Shown: positions 284-22,793 of the stretch, in pieces
Numbering within the stretch: the first letter of the stretch is position 1
Layout of the letters: each line of letters opens with the position of its first letter
NCBI GenBank assembly: GCA_043381765.1
Contig: JBHJMP010000236.1
Location: 1-35,626, forward strand
Reading direction: 5' to 3'
Origin: Collodictyon triciliatum
Taxonomy: Eukaryota
DNA length: 35,626 nucleotides
Made by a program: the position numbers and the translations under genes
Notes under the pieces: generated by a model
Database searches by the model: none
The model's input: only the letters and a program-made list of their open reading frames with translations
What the model was told of the DNA's origin: nothing

Positions 284-3200
284 ATGCCGCGTGTGGACGA
301 ATCGGTTGAGCAGCTGGTCATGAGCGCAGAGCGGGGCGATCTGCAGCAAGTCAAGGACCTTGTGGAAGGCCAACAGGTTTCTGTGGACGCCCTCAGCTCG
401 CGCAGAGAATGTGCACTCCACGTGGCCGTCCGTCGTGGCCGAACAGAGTGTGTCCGGTATCTTCTTCTGCGGAATGCCTCGGTCGATATTGTCGATGCTG
501 ATGGAAACTGGCCGATACACTTGGCCGCTCGCTCGGGTTTGTGCGAAATGATTGCTAATGTGTGTGTGTGTTTTTTTTGTGCATATAGATACAAATGTAT
601 ATATCACAGTGGCGGCATTTTTCCTGTCATGATGATAATCTCGCTTCCAAACGGTACATCATATGCATTCGACATGTGCTAGCTCGACACGAAATTCTTG
701 GACTACTATTACGCAAGAAAAGACATCATGTCAATGTGCTGAACCCACAGGTAGGCATGTTGTGTTGTCTTTTGATTTCCCTCGTGCATTGCTTGATTTT
801 ATCTTTCAATGCCTCACATTAAGCATATATGCATATATTGATTGATAATGCCTGTTTGTTGGTGTTTACAGAGAGAATCGCCTCTTCACTTGGCAGCCAA
901 TTGGGCCGACATCGATACTGTTCGCATGCTTCTCGACTATAACGCTGATGCCACTTTGCCAGGTCCGGATATGCTCGGCACACATCTTGCTCACTATTGA
1001 CTCTCATTTCATACCTTGACTACATCCCCTATCTTTCCAAAAAAAAAAATATTGCATTTTGAAAATCCCAAAAATGTTTTACCCTAAAGGATACAACGGC
1101 CTCACTGCGCTGCATATCGCTTCTATGCGTGGAAAAGTCGATATAGCAGCTGAGCTCCTTGCCTGCGGAGCAAAGATTTCGGCCATCGATGAGACTGGAA
1201 AAACTGCTCTTCATCACGCCGCATACTGCCCAAATCCTCGAATGACTACATTCTTGATTGACAGAGGTATGCGTTTCGAGTGGTCACATCCATGCTTTTA
1301 CATCGTCTCGAATAAAAAAAAAATACGCTTTATTATTTGCTCCAGGTGCAAATGTGGACGCACTTGATGAAATAGGAGCCTCTGCTGTGCATTGGGCGTG
1401 CGCGTCTGGCCATGTTGATGTGCTTCGGGTGTTGCTCCAGGTGGGTGCAGAACCGAATCTGAAAACAACCAAGGGCAATACTCCGCTGCATTTGGCTGCG
1501 AAGGAAGGATTTGTATCCTGCGTCTCGCTTCTGCTGGAAATTGGCGTGTACAGTGACATCTTAAACCATTCTCGAGAAACGCCCATCGATCTTGCTCAAA
1601 GATTCCGTCATCCAGACGTTGTCCAACTCCTTTCATCGAACTCCAATCCCTCTCCTTTTAACCAGTCCCAATCTCAGGCTGCAGCTGATGTATGTTATTA
1701 ACAAAATTATTGCATATACGAATGAGAATTACAGGTGCAGACATTGTCCATCAAAAAAATTGATATTTTTATTGAAAATCATATTAGAGAGTAAGATATG
1801 CTGAAATGGCACACAAAACTGTAATTGAAAACACTCGCAATTTAACTCTGGATGCATCGGCACGGCCTACTGAAGCATCTGTGATGATGATGTCCAAAGC
1901 TGATGTAGTCATGTCAACAAAACCGACATTATCTATTCCTGATATTTCCCTTCCAGATTATTTCATCGAATCCATCGAGAAATACAGAGACAAGGTGTCC
2001 TCGAAATTTACCCAGTGTCTCTTTTCTTCTTTTTCTCTATCTATCTTTTCTACTTCTTTTCTTTCCTCGATAATTGTAATCACGAATATTTGGGCCCGGT
2101 ATATTTCGCTTTAGTGCGTCCTACTAATTTCCTAAACAAACCAGGTGGCCCTCGTGGATTTGTCATCGGGATATCAACTGACGTATAGGCAAATCTCTGT
2201 CGGGATTCGCCGTGTGGCTGCCGGTCTATATGAACAAGGCTTAGACTACCGCCAGACCGTTTCTCTACTTGCCCCCAATATACCTGAGACTATTGTTATA
2301 CTTCATGCCACTGGATACTTGGGAGCAACTCTCTCACCCATCAACCCATCATGGACAACACAACAAGTTGCGTATCATCTCGGGCATAGTGGGGCTTCTG
2401 TGGTAATCACCACCGTCGAATTTTTAAAGAAAGTGTTTGACGCCTGTGATATTGTCCAATCGGTGTCTAAAGTATACGTGATTGGCTCAGAGGGTCCCTT
2501 TGATGTATGTGTATCCCACGCTTTGTTTAGAAAACAAAATCACGTCCATATTTAACTTTTATAATAGAATTCCATTTGCTATTTTTCCCTCGCTTTTGCA
2601 TATTTTATTGTACATACAGTATGTGTGCGCGGTCGTTTAATCCATATTGTCTCAACTTGACACCACGCTTCAGAATGAAAATGTCTCGCCGTTCTCAGTA
2701 CTTTGCCAGCCGGGTAAACTTTTTCCAGAAGTCCCACTGCAGTTTCGGAAGGATGTTGTTTTTTCTCCATTTACGAACGGGAAGTCTGAAAATCCTAAAT
2801 GTGTCGAGTTCACCCATTATAACCTTGTTGCCCAACTTGCACAGGTAAAATTTCAATCAATCAATCAATCAATCAATCAAACAAACAAATTGTTGATGCC
2901 TTACTTCTAAATGTCTGAACGTCTATATGCCAGGGAGCGAGCTATGAAGATATATCTGAAACTGATGTGGTATTTGCGTGTATACCTTTTCACCATGCTA
3001 TCGGTTTGATTTATCAGGCTCATATGTCATTGATGAAAGGTTTGCCTCCCTTTACTTCTTTCAGTTAATAAATTCATATTGTACACAATTTGTTGGGAAG
3101 GAACGATAATGGTATAATAAGTCGAAGCTGAAACTGAATTTTTTTCTTGGTTTTTCGGTTTCGTTATTGATGTATGCACATGAATTAGGTGCCACTATGC

Positions 3201-5190
3201 TGCTGTCTCCCGATTCTTCAGTATCAACGTTGCATTCTGTGATAGAAGACAGATGTGTCACAAGACTCTTCTTAATGCCGCCCATACTCCGGGGATTACT
3301 TTATAATCCCGAGTCCAAGAGGAGAAGATTAACTTCAATTAAACAAGTGTGTGCTTTATATGGAAAATAAAATAGATATATGTATTTTTAATCATTCGTA
3401 TTTATTATAGTGTATTTACAAATATCAATCTAGATTTATTGTGGTGGTGCTGAATTACCGGTTGACCTTGCTGCCGAGGCAGGCCGTTTCTTACGGTGCT
3501 ATATCCGACAGTTGTATGGCTCGTCAGAAACTGGAGTAACATTGTCTGATGTTGGTGGCTACAATACCATCCCAGTTACATCCATCGGGCAGCTGCTCGC
3601 TAATATGGAGTGTAAGATTGTAAATCGGGATGGCCAACTTTTGAAAGCTGACCAACACGGAGGTTTGTTCTCTTCTCATTTATCTAATCTATTTTTCTTT
3701 CTGGTTCTTTTTTTCTTTTTCTTTTTTGGATTTGCAGTTGGAAATGATTCAAGTCCAGAAAAAAAAAAACATCTATTTCTAAATTACCATCAATTATATT
3801 TAGAGATATGTTTGAGAGGGCCCCAAATTTTTGTCGGCTACAAGAGCGAAGGAAGCAGTATTCGGTTGGATGCGCATGGTTGGTTTCGCACCGGAGACAT
3901 CGGTTATTTCGACTCACAAGGATATTTTTACTTTGTTGGCACCCAGAAGGATATAGCCCAGAAAGTACACAAGTTGTTTATATGCACTATTGCTCTAACT
4001 CGTGTCATGGTTGCTGGCTAGAATCACTGCTATTTTTAATCGAAAAATTAATTTCTTCAATCATTCGCAGAGAGCTCGTCCTGTCATTGAACCAGCATCT
4101 CAAACGAAAACGACCAAAGATGCTATAGAGAAGCCCTCAGTTGTGCAAAAGCCGCCACTCAAGCCAGCAACGAAATCTAAACCTAAGCAGGAAATTGATA
4201 CAAAGACGGACCAAAAAAATACCGCTGAACCTGCACAGAAACCTAATGCACTTTCAGCCTCGACTGTATCGTCTCACCCCAAGAAACCCATCCCGAAACT
4301 CAAGTCGCCTTACTCAACATCACTGGACGAAGACGAGTATAGTGACGATGATGACTTCAACAAGCCATTAGAGATTAAGAAACAACCTTACCCACATTCA
4401 AAAACTCAGACTCAGAAAACAGTCACCACTCCACCAAGTTCAAAACCTGTCATGGAGCATTCAGACACTGGCCCAAATTATATTCCAACAAATTCGGCTG
4501 TGCCAATTTCAAAGGCACCAACAACAGAAACACCCCATTTCATAGCACCAGAATCTGGAGGGGTACAGATACCAACCAATTTGATGAATATGTTCACCAT
4601 AGACAACGAAATACCTTCCAATATGCCCCAGCCCTCGCAAAGGGACGTGCAATTGAAATTACCAGCAAATCCCACCTTCGCTCCGAAACAAGAGGCCCCT
4701 ACTACAATTATCCAGACAGAAGCCATTAGCATTCAAACACCAGATGCAAACGAGGTATCGTCGCATCATAATCATACTCAACCACAAAGTTCAAGATCGG
4801 AGTATCAACAACCCAATCATGAACCCAATCATGAACAGGAAATTCAATCGAGCCCCAATACACAGTCGACCATTCATGCGCTATTCGATTTGACTGTATT
4901 CCACTGTCCTAACGAGCAGGCAGTTCGATACGAAAACCGTAGACTTACTTTCGCGATGCTCTCGGAGAGAGTCAATAAGTTGGCGAATGCCTTCATAAGG
5001 TTAATGATAGATATGTTTCTTATCGTGTATCATTAGTTTACGCTTTGTATGAGTTATGATAGAATCATAAATTGAAATTGGATGTACATAGATAGGTTGC
5101 AACGATGACTCTTTAGTAATTCATGCCTAACTAACTAACCCGGTGCGCACCTTTAGGATTGGCCTTAAAAAGTCTCATAAAGTCGTCATC
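284..5190 (+). CDS. Multi-exon fusion protein: ~9 ankyrin repeats + degenerate 4-coumarate-CoA ligase/luciferase-like AMP-binding domain + P/S/T/Q-rich linker + start of second AMP-binding domain (3' part runs into gap)
   Basis: ATG at 284. GT-AG exons approx 284-536, 683-750, 871-962, 1090-1267, 1347-1689, 1788-1994, 2145-2504, 2674-2844, 2934-3039, 3189-3346, 3434-3662, 3804-3964, 4071-4999, 5157-5190 keep one frame. Ankyrin motifs: ALHVAV, PIHLAA, SPLHLAA, TALHIAS, TALHHAA, TPLHLAA. ANL-family motifs: IPFHHAIG, CGGAEL, YGSSET, EICLRGPQIFVGY, GWFRTGDIGYFD. The second domain starts TIHALFD...LTFAMLSERVNKLANAFIRIGLKKSHKVV. Confidence 0.8.
2854..2889. repeat. Intronic (AATC)n/(AAAC)n microsatellite
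   Basis: caatcaatcaatc...aacaaacaaa. Confidence 0.85.
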
Positions 5191-5626
5191 NNNNNNNNNN
5201 NNNNNNNNNNNNNNNNNNNNNNNNNNNNNNNNNNNNNNNNNNNNNNNNNNNNNNNNNNNNNNNNNNNNNNNNNNNNNNNNNNNNNNNNNNNNNNNNNNNN
5301 NNNNNNNNNNNNNNNNNNNNNNNNNNNNNNNNNNNNNNNNNNNNNNNNNNNNNNNNNNNNNNNNNNNNNNNNNNNNNNNNNNNNNNNNNNNNNNNNNNNN
5401 NNNNNNNNNNNNNNNNNNNNNNNNNNNNNNNNNNNNNNNNNNNNNNNNNNNNNNNNNNNNNNNNNNNNNNNNNNNNNNNNNNNNNNNNNNNNNNNNNNNN
5501 NNNNNNNNNNNNNNNNNNNNNNNNNNNNNNNNNNNNNNNNNNNNNNNNNNNNNNNNNNNNNNNNNNNNNNNNNNNNNNNNNNNNNNNNNNNNNNNNNNNN
5601 NNNNNNNNNNNNNNNNNNNNNNNNNN

Positions 5627-5850
5627 CTCCTCGCTCCGAAAAACTTGAGGTGCCGAATATTTTTACGCAAGGTCACGTTCAAAAAGAACTCGTCGAATCT
5701 TTTAGATCTAAGGAAATCCGGGTTTATGAAGATGAGGAACACAAGTTCAGTGCCGAATTGGCTGAAAAGGTTGTCGAGGACATCATGGAAGAAATTGCAT
5801 CAGATATTTTAAGCCAATCCATAACTATGGGGGAGGAGGACGACTTTTGA
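5627..5850 (+). CDS. Terminal coding exon with acidic helical C-terminus; either the end of the preceding gene or of another gene lost in the gap
   Basis: Open frame from the gap edge, PRSEKLEVPNIF...EDIMEEIASDILSQSITMGEEDDF, ending at TGA 5848-5850. Coding-like composition followed by AT-rich sequence. Confidence 0.55.
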
Positions 5851-6464: not shown

Positions 6465-9380
<2,916 letters not shown>

Positions 9381-11148: not shown

Positions 11149-13839
11149 ATGGAAATTCACGATCTTGAGCTTGACTACGAAAACCCTGGCCCGCAGCAAG
11201 TCCAAGAACGATCAACTAGCCATCACCCCTCGTCAAACACCGGGCTGTCAATTAAATGCGAAGTTTCTGTACCAGAGCAGCAGGAGGTCTTCGTTGAACC
11301 TGTTTTTCATGGCGACTTGCCTGAGCCCCAAGGATATGGCCTGAACATGCCAACTCATGAGGCTCCAACTCCAAAGCACCGCCGTGTTGTATTATTCACA
11401 GACTGCGATATGTACCTCCCGGTCGATCCCTCGGACACCATTGGTGGATATCTTCTCGGAAAACCTGTACTAGACTTTTTAACTTCATCGAAAGGAATGA
11501 AAGTTACAACGATGCTTGGGGCCTCGTTTCTTTTGTTTTTTGCTCTGCTGGCCGTTGTGAAACGTGCTGGGAGGTTGGATGACTATCAAAAATACTTTAT
11601 CGTTTTTTCTATCTTCCCTGTATGTTTTCCACTAGTCGGGGTTCTGCTTCAAATGCGATATATTTTCTTATTGACCTTCTCTCACTTTGAAACAATGTTT
11701 TTACTTCTTAACGGGACTTTGGCTGGTCTTACATACAGCTCCTTGGGTAAATATGAGTCGCTTGTGCCTTGCCTGACAATAATTTTTTTCGTAAGCGCCA
11801 CGCATTTGCTTTTTATGGACTCATGGATTATGAGATTCTCTATTGTTCATAGGAACATCATCTCCTTATTGGGCACCAAAACTAACGAAGTTGATTCAAA
11901 GATATTGCAAAGAGGCTCTGCTGATCATAAAAACCAAGCAGAGTTGTCAATTGTCCCGGTGGGCGAAAACACTAAATCTACAAAGAGCCACTTAATGAAT
12001 CAGCTCCGCCAAACATTAAGGCCGAGCGAAAGCTTCAGATCTCTTGTATTGAAAAATTCTTCATCTCTTGAATATGAATCTGATGCTCAGCTTAATCCTG
12101 CTACTTGCTTGATGAACGTATTCAACTTGTACTCCAGCTTGCTCGCATCTAGTGTAGTTACAGAATCGGGCATAATCCCACAAATAAGTCATTTTATGAA
12201 CAAAAGATGGAAATTGATTACGATTCTAGGATGGAAAACTATCTTCAGCAGCTTTGGTGCACTCGCTTTGTTTTTTTTCTTTTTTCTAGATATATCCATG
12301 TCAAATATTTCATCTCTCCAAAACCATAGAATTCCTCTCATCAAGGGGTATATCTCCACATATACAATTTTTAAATTAACGTGTGCCAATGTTATTATAT
12401 TTTGTATCCGAAGGATATTTCTGACCATCGCATACCCTTTGAAAGTGGTGTGCATCAGTAGGAAATTAAGAAGAATACCACTCACAGAGTTCCTTTTAGA
12501 ACTCTCAAAGTCAGAAAAAAAGAAAGCTGCCATAGAGAAACTAAAAGAATACTTATTAAGCAATCCTCCTCCAACTAATCACGGAAAGACCAACATCTTG
12601 CATCGAATCCCCCAAACTACCCATGAACTTATTCTTTGCAAAAGAGAAAAGAAATGCCTAAAACTGGGCTTGAGTTCGCAACCACCAGAGCAACTTCCAC
12701 CAATTGCTCTGAAACCAGTAAACAGATTTCTAGATGTAGATAAACTCTTTGTTCAGAGACAAGGCCTAAAATTAGTTGAAGTCTCTCAATGTTCGACCCA
12801 AAAAACAAAGAAGGAAGTTCTGGACAAAAAAACTGTCATATTTACCACACCAATAAATCAATCATTCGTATTGGACTACGAAGATTGTCTCCTAGACATT
12901 TTCCTGAAAAAAAAAACCTCTCGGCTCATAGCAAAACAGTCCAGGAAAGTTGTTCGCTTCACCGATTTCATACCCATAACATTCATGGTGCTGGCCCTTA
13001 TTCATTTTTGCTCGTCCAGCTCTGTCCTAGAAGACCTCGCTAGTATATTCTCCCTATTGGCATCTGTTCAGCGGATTATTTTCATGCTTTTGTTTTCGAG
13101 AAGTGCTCTGTGGAATTCGTTGAAAACGTTCGAGAGTTTTTACTGCATAACAAATGTCTTATTGTTTGGAATAGTGCTTGGGACCTACATACCCGACACC
13201 AAGTATAGCAAACTGGTTGTCTTTTTTGCAACATTTGGTACCTTAACAACACTCTTCGCTGATTCTTACCCCATACCATTTGGTCAGTTTGATGCCCTCC
13301 TACACAGAGAGTTCGAAGCCATCATATGTAAAGACAAACTTGCGGAAGATGACGCGGCTGTCTTGTCTTCGATTGTAGATATGAGTAACTTGATATGTGC
13401 CTTTGAGACAAACTCTGAATTTCCTTGCACCGAGGACTGGGAATCGTGTGAAAAAGTGGGCGTCCAGTACACTGATAGCTATTCACAAAGAATCCACTGT
13501 TGTGGTGTTAACCGAATCCGATATACACGAAGGCTGTTTTCGATTGTTTCCTATTCAGTCTTTGTGTCCATCCTCTTCCCAATCATCTGGGCGGTGATTT
13601 TTATTGTTGCTGTCTCCAACGATTGGATTCAAAATGCACGCCCAATCAGCATACATACGTCCCTGGGCAACTGGGAGACCAAAAGCATGCTCTGCACCTT
13701 TTGTTTTAACATTATTGTTGTGCTGAGTAGGAGATTGTGGAGCATTACAAAAGATCCGATGAGGAGTCTGGGATTCGACCGCCGCGTTATCAAGATGCCA
13801 TATGTTAATGCCTTTGATCAATATCACTCGCTGGCGTGA
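11149..13839 (+). CDS. Intronless 896-aa polytopic membrane protein of unknown function with two internally homologous halves
   Basis: Uninterrupted 2.7-kb ORF with many hydrophobic ~20-aa segments and motifs repeated in both halves (see findings). Confidence 0.85.
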   Translation: MEIHDLELDYENPGPQQVQERSTSHHPSSNTGLSIKCEVSVPEQQEVFVEPVFHGDLPEPQGYGLNMPTHEAPTPKHRRVVLFTDCDMYLPVDPSDTIGGYLLGKPVLDFLTSSKGMKVTTMLGASFLLFFALLAVVKRAGRLDDYQKYFIVFSIFPVCFPLVGVLLQMRYIFLLTFSHFETMFLLLNGTLAGLTYSSLGKYESLVPCLTIIFFVSATHLLFMDSWIMRFSIVHRNIISLLGTKTNEVDSKILQRGSADHKNQAELSIVPVGENTKSTKSHLMNQLRQTLRPSESFRSLVLKNSSSLEYESDAQLNPATCLMNVFNLYSSLLASSVVTESGIIPQISHFMNKRWKLITILGWKTIFSSFGALALFFFFFLDISMSNISSLQNHRIPLIKGYISTYTIFKLTCANVIIFCIRRIFLTIAYPLKVVCISRKLRRIPLTEFLLELSKSEKKKAAIEKLKEYLLSNPPPTNHGKTNILHRIPQTTHELILCKREKKCLKLGLSSQPPEQLPPIALKPVNRFLDVDKLFVQRQGLKLVEVSQCSTQKTKKEVLDKKTVIFTTPINQSFVLDYEDCLLDIFLKKKTSRLIAKQSRKVVRFTDFIPITFMVLALIHFCSSSSVLEDLASIFSLLASVQRIIFMLLFSRSALWNSLKTFESFYCITNVLLFGIVLGTYIPDTKYSKLVVFFATFGTLTTLFADSYPIPFGQFDALLHREFEAIICKDKLAEDDAAVLSSIVDMSNLICAFETNSEFPCTEDWESCEKVGVQYTDSYSQRIHCCGVNRIRYTRRLFSIVSYSVFVSILFPIIWAVIFIVAVSNDWIQNARPISIHTSLGNWETKSMLCTFCFNIIVVLSRRLWSITKDPMRSLGFDRRVIKMPYVNAFDQYHSLA

Positions 13840-14295: not shown

Positions 14296-15075
14296 ATGCA
14301 GGACAACCACTGGGATAACGACTTTGTCTCTGAGGAGGATTTGTTGGCCTTGGATATGATGTGCCGGCAAGCCGAGCAAACTTGGGGCTCGCAGTTCTCA
14401 CCCAGCACGACAACACAAACGCAAACAACCAACCAAACACAAACACAAACACAAACACAAACGCAAACGCAAACGCAAACGCAAACGCAAACGCAAACGC
14501 AAACGCAAACGCAAACACAAACGCAAACGCAAACACAAACGCAAACGCAAACGCAAACACAAACACAAACACCCGAAGACACCTCTTCCTCCAAGCCAGA
14601 TATTTGGGATGACTTCGACCAGCAACTACTCTGTGAGCACCTGGACGTAGTGGAGGCTGCTCTGAGCCAAGCAAACCAACCACAAAGGACCGAAGAGGCC
14701 CCCAAAATCCACTGCGCCGACCAGAGCCAAACAACACAGCAGCTGAGCCGATGTATCACGCAGCAGCAAACAGCCGAGCGCGTCAGATTGCTTCGGCTTG
14801 CATCCAAGAGTCCACATCCTACCCACCGGATGCCTTTTGCCTCGCCAATCCTCAGCAACCGCCCCACGCGGCTCAAAGTCCATCGCCTTGCTGAAGAGCT
14901 GCAGTCTTCGGAATCGCGTTTAGATAAGGCCCACTACACAGGCTGTTCTGCAGACGCTGCATCCAGTGTGACGCAACAAGTTGGGGCAGATTCATTGCCG
15001 CAGGTGTGGGCAACAAAGGACGGAGTCGGGCGCATTATGGTTGACGTGGACGTGGACCCCACATCGCTTGTGTGA
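14296..15075 (+). CDS. Hypothetical 259-aa protein with a Gln-Thr dipeptide repeat flanked by two acidic W-D-x(1-2)-F...LD motifs
   Basis: GC-richer open frame downstream of an A-rich tract. Variation in the repeat (ACA/ACG) is synonymous in this frame. Possible 3' splicing cannot be excluded. Confidence 0.6.
   Translation: MQDNHWDNDFVSEEDLLALDMMCRQAEQTWGSQFSPSTTTQTQTTNQTQTQTQTQTQTQTQTQTQTQTQTQTQTQTQTQTQTQTQTQTQTQTPEDTSSSKPDIWDDFDQQLLCEHLDVVEAALSQANQPQRTEEAPKIHCADQSQTTQQLSRCITQQQTAERVRLLRLASKSPHPTHRMPFASPILSNRPTRLKVHRLAEELQSSESRLDKAHYTGCSADAASSVTQQVGADSLPQVWATKDGVGRIMVDVDVDPTSLV
14410..14572 (+). repeat. Coding (CAAACR)n hexamer repeat encoding (Gln-Thr)n
   Basis: More than 20 units of CAAACA/CAAACG. 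Confidence 0.95.
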
Positions 15076-17412: not shown

Positions 17413-17813
17413 NNNNNNNNNNNNNNNNNNNNNNNNNNNNNNNNNNNNNNNNNNNNNNNNNNNNNNNNNNNNNNNNNNNNNNNNNNNNNNNNNNNNNNNN
17501 NNNNNNNNNNNNNNNNNNNNNNNNNNNNNNNNNNNNNNNNNNNNNNNNNNNNNNNNNNNNNNNNNNNNNNNNNNNNNNNNNNNNNNNNNNNNNNNNNNNN
17601 NNNNNNNNNNNNNNNNNNNNNNNNNNNNNNNNNNNNNNNNNNNNNNNNNNNNNNNNNNNNNNNNNNNNNNNNNNNNNNNNNNNNNNNNNNNNNNNNNNNN
17701 NNNNNNNNNNNNNNNNNNNNNNNNNNNNNNNNNNNNNNNNNNNNNNNNNNNNNNNNNNNNNNNNNNNNNNNNNNNNNNNNNNNNNNNNNNNNNNNNNNNN
17801 NNNNNNNNNNNNN

Positions 17814-22092: not shown

Positions 22093-22793
22093 CTTTATGA
22101 AAATATGATCGAAGATAACAACAACAACAANNNNNNNNNNNNNNNNNNNNNNNNNNNNNNNNNNNNNNNNNNNNNNNNNNNNNNNNNNNNNNNNNNNNNN
22201 NNNNNNNNNNNNNNNNNNNNNNNNNNNNNNNNNNNNNNNNNNNNNNNNNNNNNNNNNNNNNNNNNNNNNNNNNNNNNNNNNNNNNNNNNNNNNNNNNNNN
22301 NNNNNNNNNNNNNNNNNNNNNNNNNNNNNNNNNNNNNNNNNNNNNNNNNNNNNNNNNNNNNNNNNNNNNNNNNNNNNNNNNNNNNNNNNNNNNNNNNNNN
22401 NNNNNNNNNNNNNNNNNNNNNNNNNNNNNNNNNNNNNNNNNNNNNNNNNNNNNNNNNNNNNNNNNNNNNNNNNNNNNNNNNNNNNNNNNNNNNNNNNNNN
22501 NNNNNNNNNNNNNNNNNNNNNNNNNNNNNNNNNNNNNNNNNNNNNNNNNNNNNNNNNNNNNNNNNNNNNNNNNNNNNNNNNNNNNNNNNNNNNNNNNNNN
22601 NNNNNNNNNNNNNNNNNNNNNNNNNNNNNNNNNNNNNNNNNNNNNNNNNNNNNNNNNNNNNNNNNNNNNNNNNNNNNNNNNNNNNNNNNNNNNNNNNNNN
22701 NNNNNNNNNNNNNNNNNNNNNNNNNNNNNNNNNNNNNNNNNNNNNNNNNNNNNNNNNNNNNNNNNNNNNNNNNNNNNNNNNNNNNNNNNNNNG

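Follow-up and report, generated by a model that had tools for sequence, protein, structure and literature searches.

An ankyrin-led protein built around a ligase core that has probably lost its catalytic activity appears to be encoded on contig JBHJMP010000236.1 of the Collodictyon triciliatum assembly GCA_043381765.1 (positions 1-35,626, forward strand; this whole 35,626-nt stretch is the window). Gene modelling gave 14 exons and 13 GT-AG introns, generating a stop-free frame of 1096 aa from the ATG at 284 to an assembly gap at 5191. The modelled order is nine ankyrin repeats, a domain of the 4CL (4-coumarate-CoA-ligase)/luciferase type (domain 1), a 265-aa low-complexity linker and the first ~55 aa of another adenylation domain (domain 2). 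We hold, at roughly even confidence, that this is one spliced gene for an adaptor in which ankyrin repeats precede a non-catalytic, ligand-binding ligase core, a linker and an NRPS-type domain. A preliminary description of the locus had proposed ankyrin repeats followed by two AMP-binding domains, and that architecture proved largely real after two corrections, namely that domain 1 is a probable pseudoenzyme and that domain 2 does not look like a tandem copy of it. It is a single gene from a single draft genome, with a predicted splice and a predicted 3' end, and is a lead, not a system.

Table. Features of the ankyrin-ligase gene and its surroundings in the window.
Feature	Position (nt)	Strand	Basis or remark
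Exons 1-5, ankyrin repeats	284-536, 683-750, 872-962, 1090-1266, 1346-1689	+	Gene model, Pfam, repeat list
Predicted joining intron, 98 nt, phase 0	1690-1787	+	Gene model, acceptor score, composition
Exon 6, remainder of 57-aa spacer, then ligase homology from ~nt 1914 (aa 354)	1788-1994	+	Composition; P0102 alignment
Exons 7-12, 4CL/luciferase-type large N-terminal domain, ending at hinge	2145-2504, 2674-2844, 2934-3039, 3189-3346, 3434-3662, 3804-3964	+	
RNA-library contig in domain 1	2183-2364		Within exon 7
Degenerate P-loop, aa 534-544	2773-2805	+	Four near-invariant positions S>T, S>N, T>K, G>E; G>C further on
Hinge-motif Arg to Thr, aa 768	3941-3943	+	
Low-complexity linker, 265 aa, exon 13	4071-4865	+	Composition; occupies the place of the C-terminal ligase subdomain
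RNA-library contigs in linker	4098-4365, 4440-4673		Within exon 13
Start of second, NRPS-type adenylation domain, ~55 aa, cut by gap	4866-4999, 5157-5190	+	PDB matches, NRPS alignment
Assembly gap, 436 N, size unreliable	5191-5626	.	
Open frame with acidic end, stop at 5848-5850	5627-5850	+	May be last exon of the ankyrin-ligase gene or belong to another gene

The ankyrin repeats, which had been estimated at about nine, are spaced ~33 aa apart over aa 1 to ~296 as a tandem array and are followed by a short S/Q-rich tail encoded up to 1689; Pfam matched Ank on every ankyrin exon scanned (four of the five). The proposal that a 98-nt intron joins this frame in phase to the ligase frame was reproduced in our model, and the intron is well supported as an in silico prediction by its length, acceptor score and composition. 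Rival acceptors within it end at 1734 and 1740 and would give introns of 45 and 51 nt, below all 42 control introns (minimum 75 nt), which are themselves our own predicted models. A matrix derived from 30 introns in other genes gave the acceptor at 1787 a score of 5.1 and the rivals 1.6 and 0.7. The composition of 1735-1787 is intron-like, and 1788-1883 is exon-like, open and in frame. An internal YAG is skipped in 26 of the 42 control introns too. The TATTAG acceptor ending said to be shared with the CHD gene does occur there, closing 2 of the 19 CHD introns modelled, and gives weak support.

The same region could be read as two adjacent genes, one encoding ankyrins alone and ending at 1701 or 1794, the other ligase-like and starting from ATG 1806 or 1884. 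Ligase homology begins at aa 354, just past the Met run at 1884, and this is the point at which stand-alone 4CL-like proteins begin; the 1690 donor is one of the weakest, its score of 2.9 equalling the lowest of 13 with a matrix from other genes, and the RNA pieces are confined to the downstream part. Against this, 11-182 nt would be left to hold a 3' end and a promoter. The distance from stop to ATG 1806 is 104 or 11 nt, whereas three other gene boundaries span about 460, 614 and 1768 nt; the earlier remark likewise was that a promoter has no room here. The 100 nt upstream of ATG 1806 contain 27% GC, as opposed to 38-50% upstream of five other starts, and the open, exon-like character of 1788-1883 also argues against separate genes, which we regard as unlikely. 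The one-gene reading is favoured. A bacterial promoter scan was set aside as not applicable to a eukaryote.

Three RNA-library contigs, originating from two studies, lie entirely inside predicted exons (about 0.01 expected by chance). At a depth of about 3, none spans 1689/1788 or any other junction of the gene model, and none lies over the ankyrin exons, an absence that is not evidence because of that depth. One X1 RNA contig, of depth 3, differs non-synonymously from the window within exon 7, which is uninformative.

Homology in domain 1 (aa 354-771) covers the whole large domain, at profile positions 2-421 of 425 (E 2e-98), and stops at the hinge. PF00501 scored above the Pfam cut-off for exons 7 and 11, and alignment with P0102 (Clastostelium, EukProt) gave 31% identity over 437 columns (E 3e-63). 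The domain aligns end to end with the large N-terminal domain of 4CL, firefly luciferase and 4CL-like acyl-CoA synthetases (PDB 5bsm, 3a9u, 1ba3; P0102), and shares the His, YGxxE and TGD motifs with the active ligases. Unlike these enzymes, it is embedded between ankyrins and a linker, has no C-terminal subdomain with the catalytic Lys, and has its P-loop and hinge Arg replaced. When the whole window was searched by tblastn with two queries for the C-terminal subdomain (PF13193, catalytic Lys after the hinge), the best E values were 0.13 and 1.7. In place of an intact Ser/Thr/Gly-rich P-loop, domain 1 has N535, K537, E539 and C543, each found in none of 116 relatives; the hinge Arg, here Thr768, is present in all 114 relatives with a residue at that column (the other 2 of 116 are gapped), and a near-invariant Pro is replaced at aa 652. 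Altogether 7 of 23 near-invariant columns are changed, four of them in the P-loop, compared with a maximum of 5 among the 116 relatives. The 16 retained include the YGxxE and TGD motifs of the nucleotide pocket and the His of the substrate-pocket motif. The loss is concentrated at catalytic sites and the core is kept. Because the C-terminal subdomain with its catalytic Lys is absent and the P-loop and hinge Arg are replaced, domain 1 is, judged by its sequence, a probable pseudoenzyme. The architecture of the preliminary description stands for the ankyrins, domain 1 and the linker, with domain 1 reduced to the large N-terminal part; its tandem ligase domains are not confirmed.

In the accessible text of PMC4757408, the C domain of luciferase carries both catalytic lysines, an isolated N domain retains binding of substrate, ATP and adenylate with about 1e-5 of the activity, and the split N and C domains complement each other. 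Domain 1 might likewise be active through a C-terminal subdomain supplied in trans or by domain 2, but its replaced P-loop and hinge Arg sit on the N domain itself, beyond repair by a lent C domain, and we consider such activity very improbable.

The linker, expected to be disordered and ~270 aa long, is 265 aa of low complexity, 60% of it P/E/S/T/Q/K. At the start of domain 2, every one of the 26 PDB matches is to an NRPS protein (best E 1.6e-4) and identity with NRPS A-domain starts is 32-44%; the Pfam score is below cut-off (E 0.0011), and its ~55 visible aa do not significantly resemble domain 1 (E 0.12). Domain 2 therefore appears to resemble NRPS adenylation domains and to be of separate origin. 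The idea of two acyl-CoA-ligase-like domains is not supported in that form, and a second AMP-binding domain is retained only as the ~55 aa visible before the 436-N gap. Pfam detected no carrier (thiolation) domain in the visible sequence before the gap, which may hide one. Of the three other testable gaps in the window, two contain much more sequence than their N count implies, and the gaps can conceal kilobases, so domain 2 may be far longer than 436 N would allow. That domain 2 is a stub, 436 N being too short for a domain, was accordingly dropped, as only one of the three other sized gaps fits its content. The open frame after the gap has no clear family and gave weak unnamed clusters alone in the ESM Atlas.

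Sequence searches, in which protists are poorly covered, found no ankyrin-plus-ligase protein, and homologue searches found no orthologue of the gene. The remote queries were single exons or a stand-in protein, not the spliced chain, and for that reason the missing homologues are weak evidence. The homologue search with exon 7 retained 0 of 192 candidates and another 1 of 1725 (28% identity); among the best 150 of 4812 in a further search, 145 were proteins of >3000 aa with several matched stretches and 5 were short and 4CL-like, with a top identity of 40%. Metagenomes yielded two loci (33-34% identity), viruses none, and the ESM Atlas returned generic AMP-binding clusters for exon 7. The ankyrin part matched none of 151 collected proteins and, by blastp, none of the 120 long 4CL-like proteins listed (of 1774 passing, 8000 scored), among which none carries an ankyrin family. 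An alignment of exon fragments with homologues was of poor quality and was excluded. No description of the architecture was found in a literature search of titles and abstract openings. The lack of a found orthologue, the lost catalytic residues and a long branch (2.28, median 0.43) would also fit a recent chance fusion or a decaying pseudogene without selected function. This is improbable given a frame intact across 13 introns and 1096 codons, losses focused on catalytic sites with the core retained, and exonic RNA-library pieces from two studies.

Among the same 120 listed proteins (of 1774 passing), 17 are ligase core-PAS-histidine kinases without the C-terminal subdomain. In these bacterial AMP-binding-PAS-HisKA_3-HATPase_c proteins (P0206, P0210) a 4CL-like core stops at the same hinge and is joined to a signalling module, which suggests that hinge truncation of the 4CL core arose more than once. 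They offer an analogy for a possible sensing role of domain 1. Their output is a kinase, whereas the window protein has a linker after the core and no PAS, HisKA_3 or HATPase_c; they also keep the hinge Arg and most of the P-loop, so domain 1 is more decayed than its analogues and may perhaps bind no ligand. A literature search of titles and abstract openings found no description of the kinase architecture, which is apparently undescribed, and a prokaryote genome scan with P0206 gave four partial matches only. A quick tree of 53 hand-picked rows (10 of the 17 kinases, 6 of 15 hydratase fusions, 3 of 7 SDR fusions, 33 others and the window row) placed the window row outside the kinase clade on the long, unresolved branch given above; descent of domain 1 from the kinase family is neither supported nor excluded.

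Under the preferred reading, the nine ankyrin repeats would, judging by their family, bind a partner protein. Domain 1, probably incapable of ATP turnover, would persist as a folded unit whose most likely ligand is an adenine nucleotide, an acyl-adenylate or a carboxylic acid; such a ligand might tune partner binding or the downstream domain. The linker would tether this unit to the NRPS-type domain 2, possibly the sole source of catalytic activity. The scaffold or metabolite-sensing role proposed earlier gains from the loss of the catalytic subdomain and P-loop and from the bacterial analogue truncated at the same hinge; binding and sensing themselves we infer. A possible but distinctly less probable reading is that domain 1 is a ligand-free structural spacer or protein-interaction surface, forming with the ankyrins a targeting extension of an NRPS-like or acyl-activating enzyme in domain 2. 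The lost phosphate-binding residues, hinge Arg and Pro at aa 652, the NRPS-like identity of domain 2 and the capacity of the gaps would fit this, but 16 of 23 near-invariant columns, pocket motifs included, are retained, and the remainder of domain 2 is hidden. Going further within the adaptor reading, we tentatively propose, with considerable doubt, a one-chain eukaryotic metabolite switch in which the lid-less ligase core senses an adenylate, nucleotide or acid and gates ankyrin binding; the ligand might be made by the NRPS-type domain further along the same chain. ANL folds are almost always regarded as enzymes, and a lid-less, P-loop-dead 4CL core set between ankyrins and another adenylation domain would clearly exemplify the conversion of this fold into a regulatory module, as the present data suggest. 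If true, the switch and the bacterial kinases together would mean that lid-less 4CL cores have evolved into sensor domains repeatedly.

Several known proteins resemble parts of this arrangement. ACBD6 and plant ACBP1/2 couple a non-catalytic acyl-CoA-binding module to ankyrin repeats that dock a partner, and use the small ACB fold, not the ANL fold. Like DIP2/Cmr2, the window protein places an interaction domain at the N-terminus, ahead of two ANL-type domains, an arrangement with a regulatory role in eukaryotes; DIP2, as presented in the available part of PMC12055004, combines a DMAP-binding domain with two FAAL-like domains and requires catalysis, and the window protein differs in its ankyrin N-terminus, its dead 4CL-type core and its unrelated NRPS-type domain. 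Fungal TmpL likewise has an AMP-binding domain outside an NRPS module and fused to unrelated domains; it joins membrane and flavin-binding parts to an NRPS-like domain, with no ankyrins described in the accessible text (PMC2766074).

The ankyrin and ligase frames very probably form one gene. In the gene model, 13 GT-AG introns of 79-169 nt leave a stop-free frame of 1096 codons, in which nine ankyrin repeats (residues 7 to ~296; Pfam ankyrin matches on all four ankyrin exons scanned, the 68-nt exon 2 lying outside the scan) are followed by a 57-aa spacer, a 4CL/luciferase-type ligase core (domain 1, aa 354-771), a 265-aa linker consisting to 60% of P/E/S/T/Q/K and, C-terminal to the linker, the visible ~55 aa of domain 2. 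The about nine repeats and the disordered linker of ~270 aa proposed in the preliminary description were both recovered. Intron 11 is stop-free and its length keeps the frame, so its retention would add 47 residues to domain 1.

Features of the ankyrin-ligase gene and its surroundings in the window
Feature	Position	Strand	Remarks
Ankyrin-ligase gene model	ATG 284 to gap at 5191		
Junction intron	1690-1787		98 nt; ankyrin frame to ligase frame
Intron 11	3663-3803		141 nt
436-N gap	5191-5626		cuts domain 2
Frame beyond the 436-N gap	5627-5850		
UBA5-like gene	6465-9380	+	intact, 12 exons; served as intron control
Intron-free frame	11149-13839	+	~896 aa
Frame with Thr-Gln run	14296-15075	+	
401-N gap	17413-17813		
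662-N gap	22131-22792		

The junction intron was compared with 42 control introns, all from our own models (19 CHD, 11 UBA5-like and 12 others of the ankyrin-ligase gene; for the two neighbours, 4 and 8 open-frame solutions existed, of which one each was used). Its length is ordinary among the controls, which span 75-434 nt; the rival introns, of 45 nt to 1734 and of 51 nt to 1740, fall below all 42. The acceptor at 1787 scores 5.1 versus 1.6 and 0.7 at the rivals (matrix from 30 introns of other genes), 3-mer content is intron-like over 1735-1787 (-5.7 bits) and exon-like over 1788-1883 (+8.3 bits), and an internal YAG is passed over in 26 of the 42 controls too. Two separate genes, encoding an ankyrin protein and a ligase-like protein, would fit the donor at 1690 (score 2.9, joint lowest of 13) and a ligase homology that begins exactly where a stand-alone enzyme would; this arrangement is nevertheless unlikely, given the rival lengths, acceptor scores and 3-mer content, and it would separate ATG 1806 from the preceding stop by 104 nt if that stop is at 1701, or by 11 nt if it is at 1794; three further gene boundaries in the window measure about 460, 614 and 1768 nt. 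The uniting intron and the scant room for a promoter, both put forward earlier, are hence favoured.

Small shares of the gene region were present in two freshwater metatranscriptome runs, from which 7 records aligned to it; none contained a splice joint, including 1689/1788. Three matched at 99-100% wholly within exons 7 and 13 (the chance of three pieces of such length all being exonic is ~1 in 100), which hints at mRNA of the downstream part and is neutral on the junction. The other four, short partial matches with loose ends on the pyrimidine-rich part of intron 6, probably derive from other organisms.

Over 437 columns domain 1 aligned with the 4CL-like protein P0102 from the amoebozoan Clastostelium (31% identity, E 3e-63), and the match stops at the hinge. 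Searching the whole window with the C-terminal subdomains of two relatives revealed no counterpart (best E 0.13 and 1.7); that domain 1 works by complementation is the least probable of the readings considered. In an alignment with 116 relatives (6 of 122 were left out for covering <370 of 428 residues), a set biased to intact enzymes because all were found via conserved words, domain 1 kept 16 of 23 near-invariant columns; the seven changed are four in the P-loop, Pro at 652, hinge Arg at 768 and Lys at 774, the last at the extreme end of homology. The relatives had at most 5 of the 23 changed, and 87 of the 116 had none. The His, YGxxE and TGD motifs are retained, and domain 1 departs from active 4CL/luciferase ligases in three tested features. 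Decay of the gene is scarcely more probable than complementation.

In ANL enzymes the P-loop binds the ATP phosphates, and adenine, ribose and Mg are bound by the YGxxE and TGD motifs. According to PMC4757408, both catalytic lysines of firefly luciferase lie on the C domain; without it, the N domain has ~1e-5 of the activity yet retains binding of luciferin, ATP and the adenylate. Given these roles and data, the changed P-loop and lost C-subdomain make catalytic turnover by domain 1 very unlikely; judged from its residues, it is a probable pseudoenzyme for which ligand binding is plausible.

The proposal of tandem ligase-like domains held for domain 1; domain 2 showed no significant similarity to it (E 0.12) and is NRPS-type, all 26 PDB matches being NRPS proteins (best E 1.6e-4), with 32-44% identity to NRPS A-domain starts. 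That domain 1 binds no ligand and serves as a spacer in an NRPS-like enzyme is a doubtful alternative. Since the completeness of domain 2 hinges on the 436-N gap, three other sized gaps were calibrated. The 618-N gap agrees with the ~120 dynein residues lacking across it. Across the 401-N gap ~400 dynein-2 heavy chain residues are lacking, and the gap would have to contain them because COQ5 exons come next, with no dynein-like frame there; the 662-N gap, which has a C-terminal exon of CHD on one side and dynein position 3391 (of 4513) on the other, lacks >3000. These two of the three are undersized or scaffold misjoins; the 436-N gap could therefore conceal an entire domain, and the frame beyond it may be another gene's.

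We give about even chances to an ankyrin adaptor whose dead core binds a ligand and modulates docking or domain 2: the repeats would dock a partner protein, the core would bind nucleotide, adenylate or acid, the ligand-bound core would modulate ankyrin docking or the second domain, and the linker would supply reach. In its working the protein is likened to enzyme-derived sensors or adaptors; it is neither DIP2 as described in PMC12055004 nor TmpL as described in PMC2766074. No description of an ankyrin plus adenylating domain architecture was found in the literature, most subscription papers being outside scope, and neither orthologues nor ankyrin-ligase fusions appeared among the matches listed for single-exon or stand-in protein queries. 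The combination is a new variant; its parts are already known.

Among the matches listed, 17 of 120 long 4CL-like proteins (P0206, P0210, P0212, P0213, P0216 and 12 more; ~800 aa, mostly metagenomic) carry AMP-binding, PAS, HisKA_3 and HATPase_c without AMP-binding_C, a layout confirmed by Pfam in both scanned. All six inspected depart from the ligase pattern right after the hinge. These kinases retain most of the P-loop plus the hinge Arg, with a P-loop Gly-to-Ala change in 9 of 17; in a quick tree including 10 of the 17 they formed one clade, and domain 1 was an unplaced long branch. A literature search found no description of the ligase-core-PAS-histidine kinase architecture. They are candidate sensor kinases for acyl-adenylates, nucleotides or acids and, kinship with domain 1 aside, may illustrate by analogy how a ligase core without its lid could serve as input domain.

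The window is intron-rich eukaryotic DNA with UBA5-like, COQ5-like, dynein-2 heavy chain and CHD remodeller genes as modelled neighbours, the first resembling UBA5, the UFM1-activating enzyme. Pfam scans of two further frames gave zero matches: the intron-free frame, lying amid an intron-dense genome, has several hydrophobic stretches that apparently recur twice, and the other bears a long, microsatellite-derived Thr-Gln dipeptide run.
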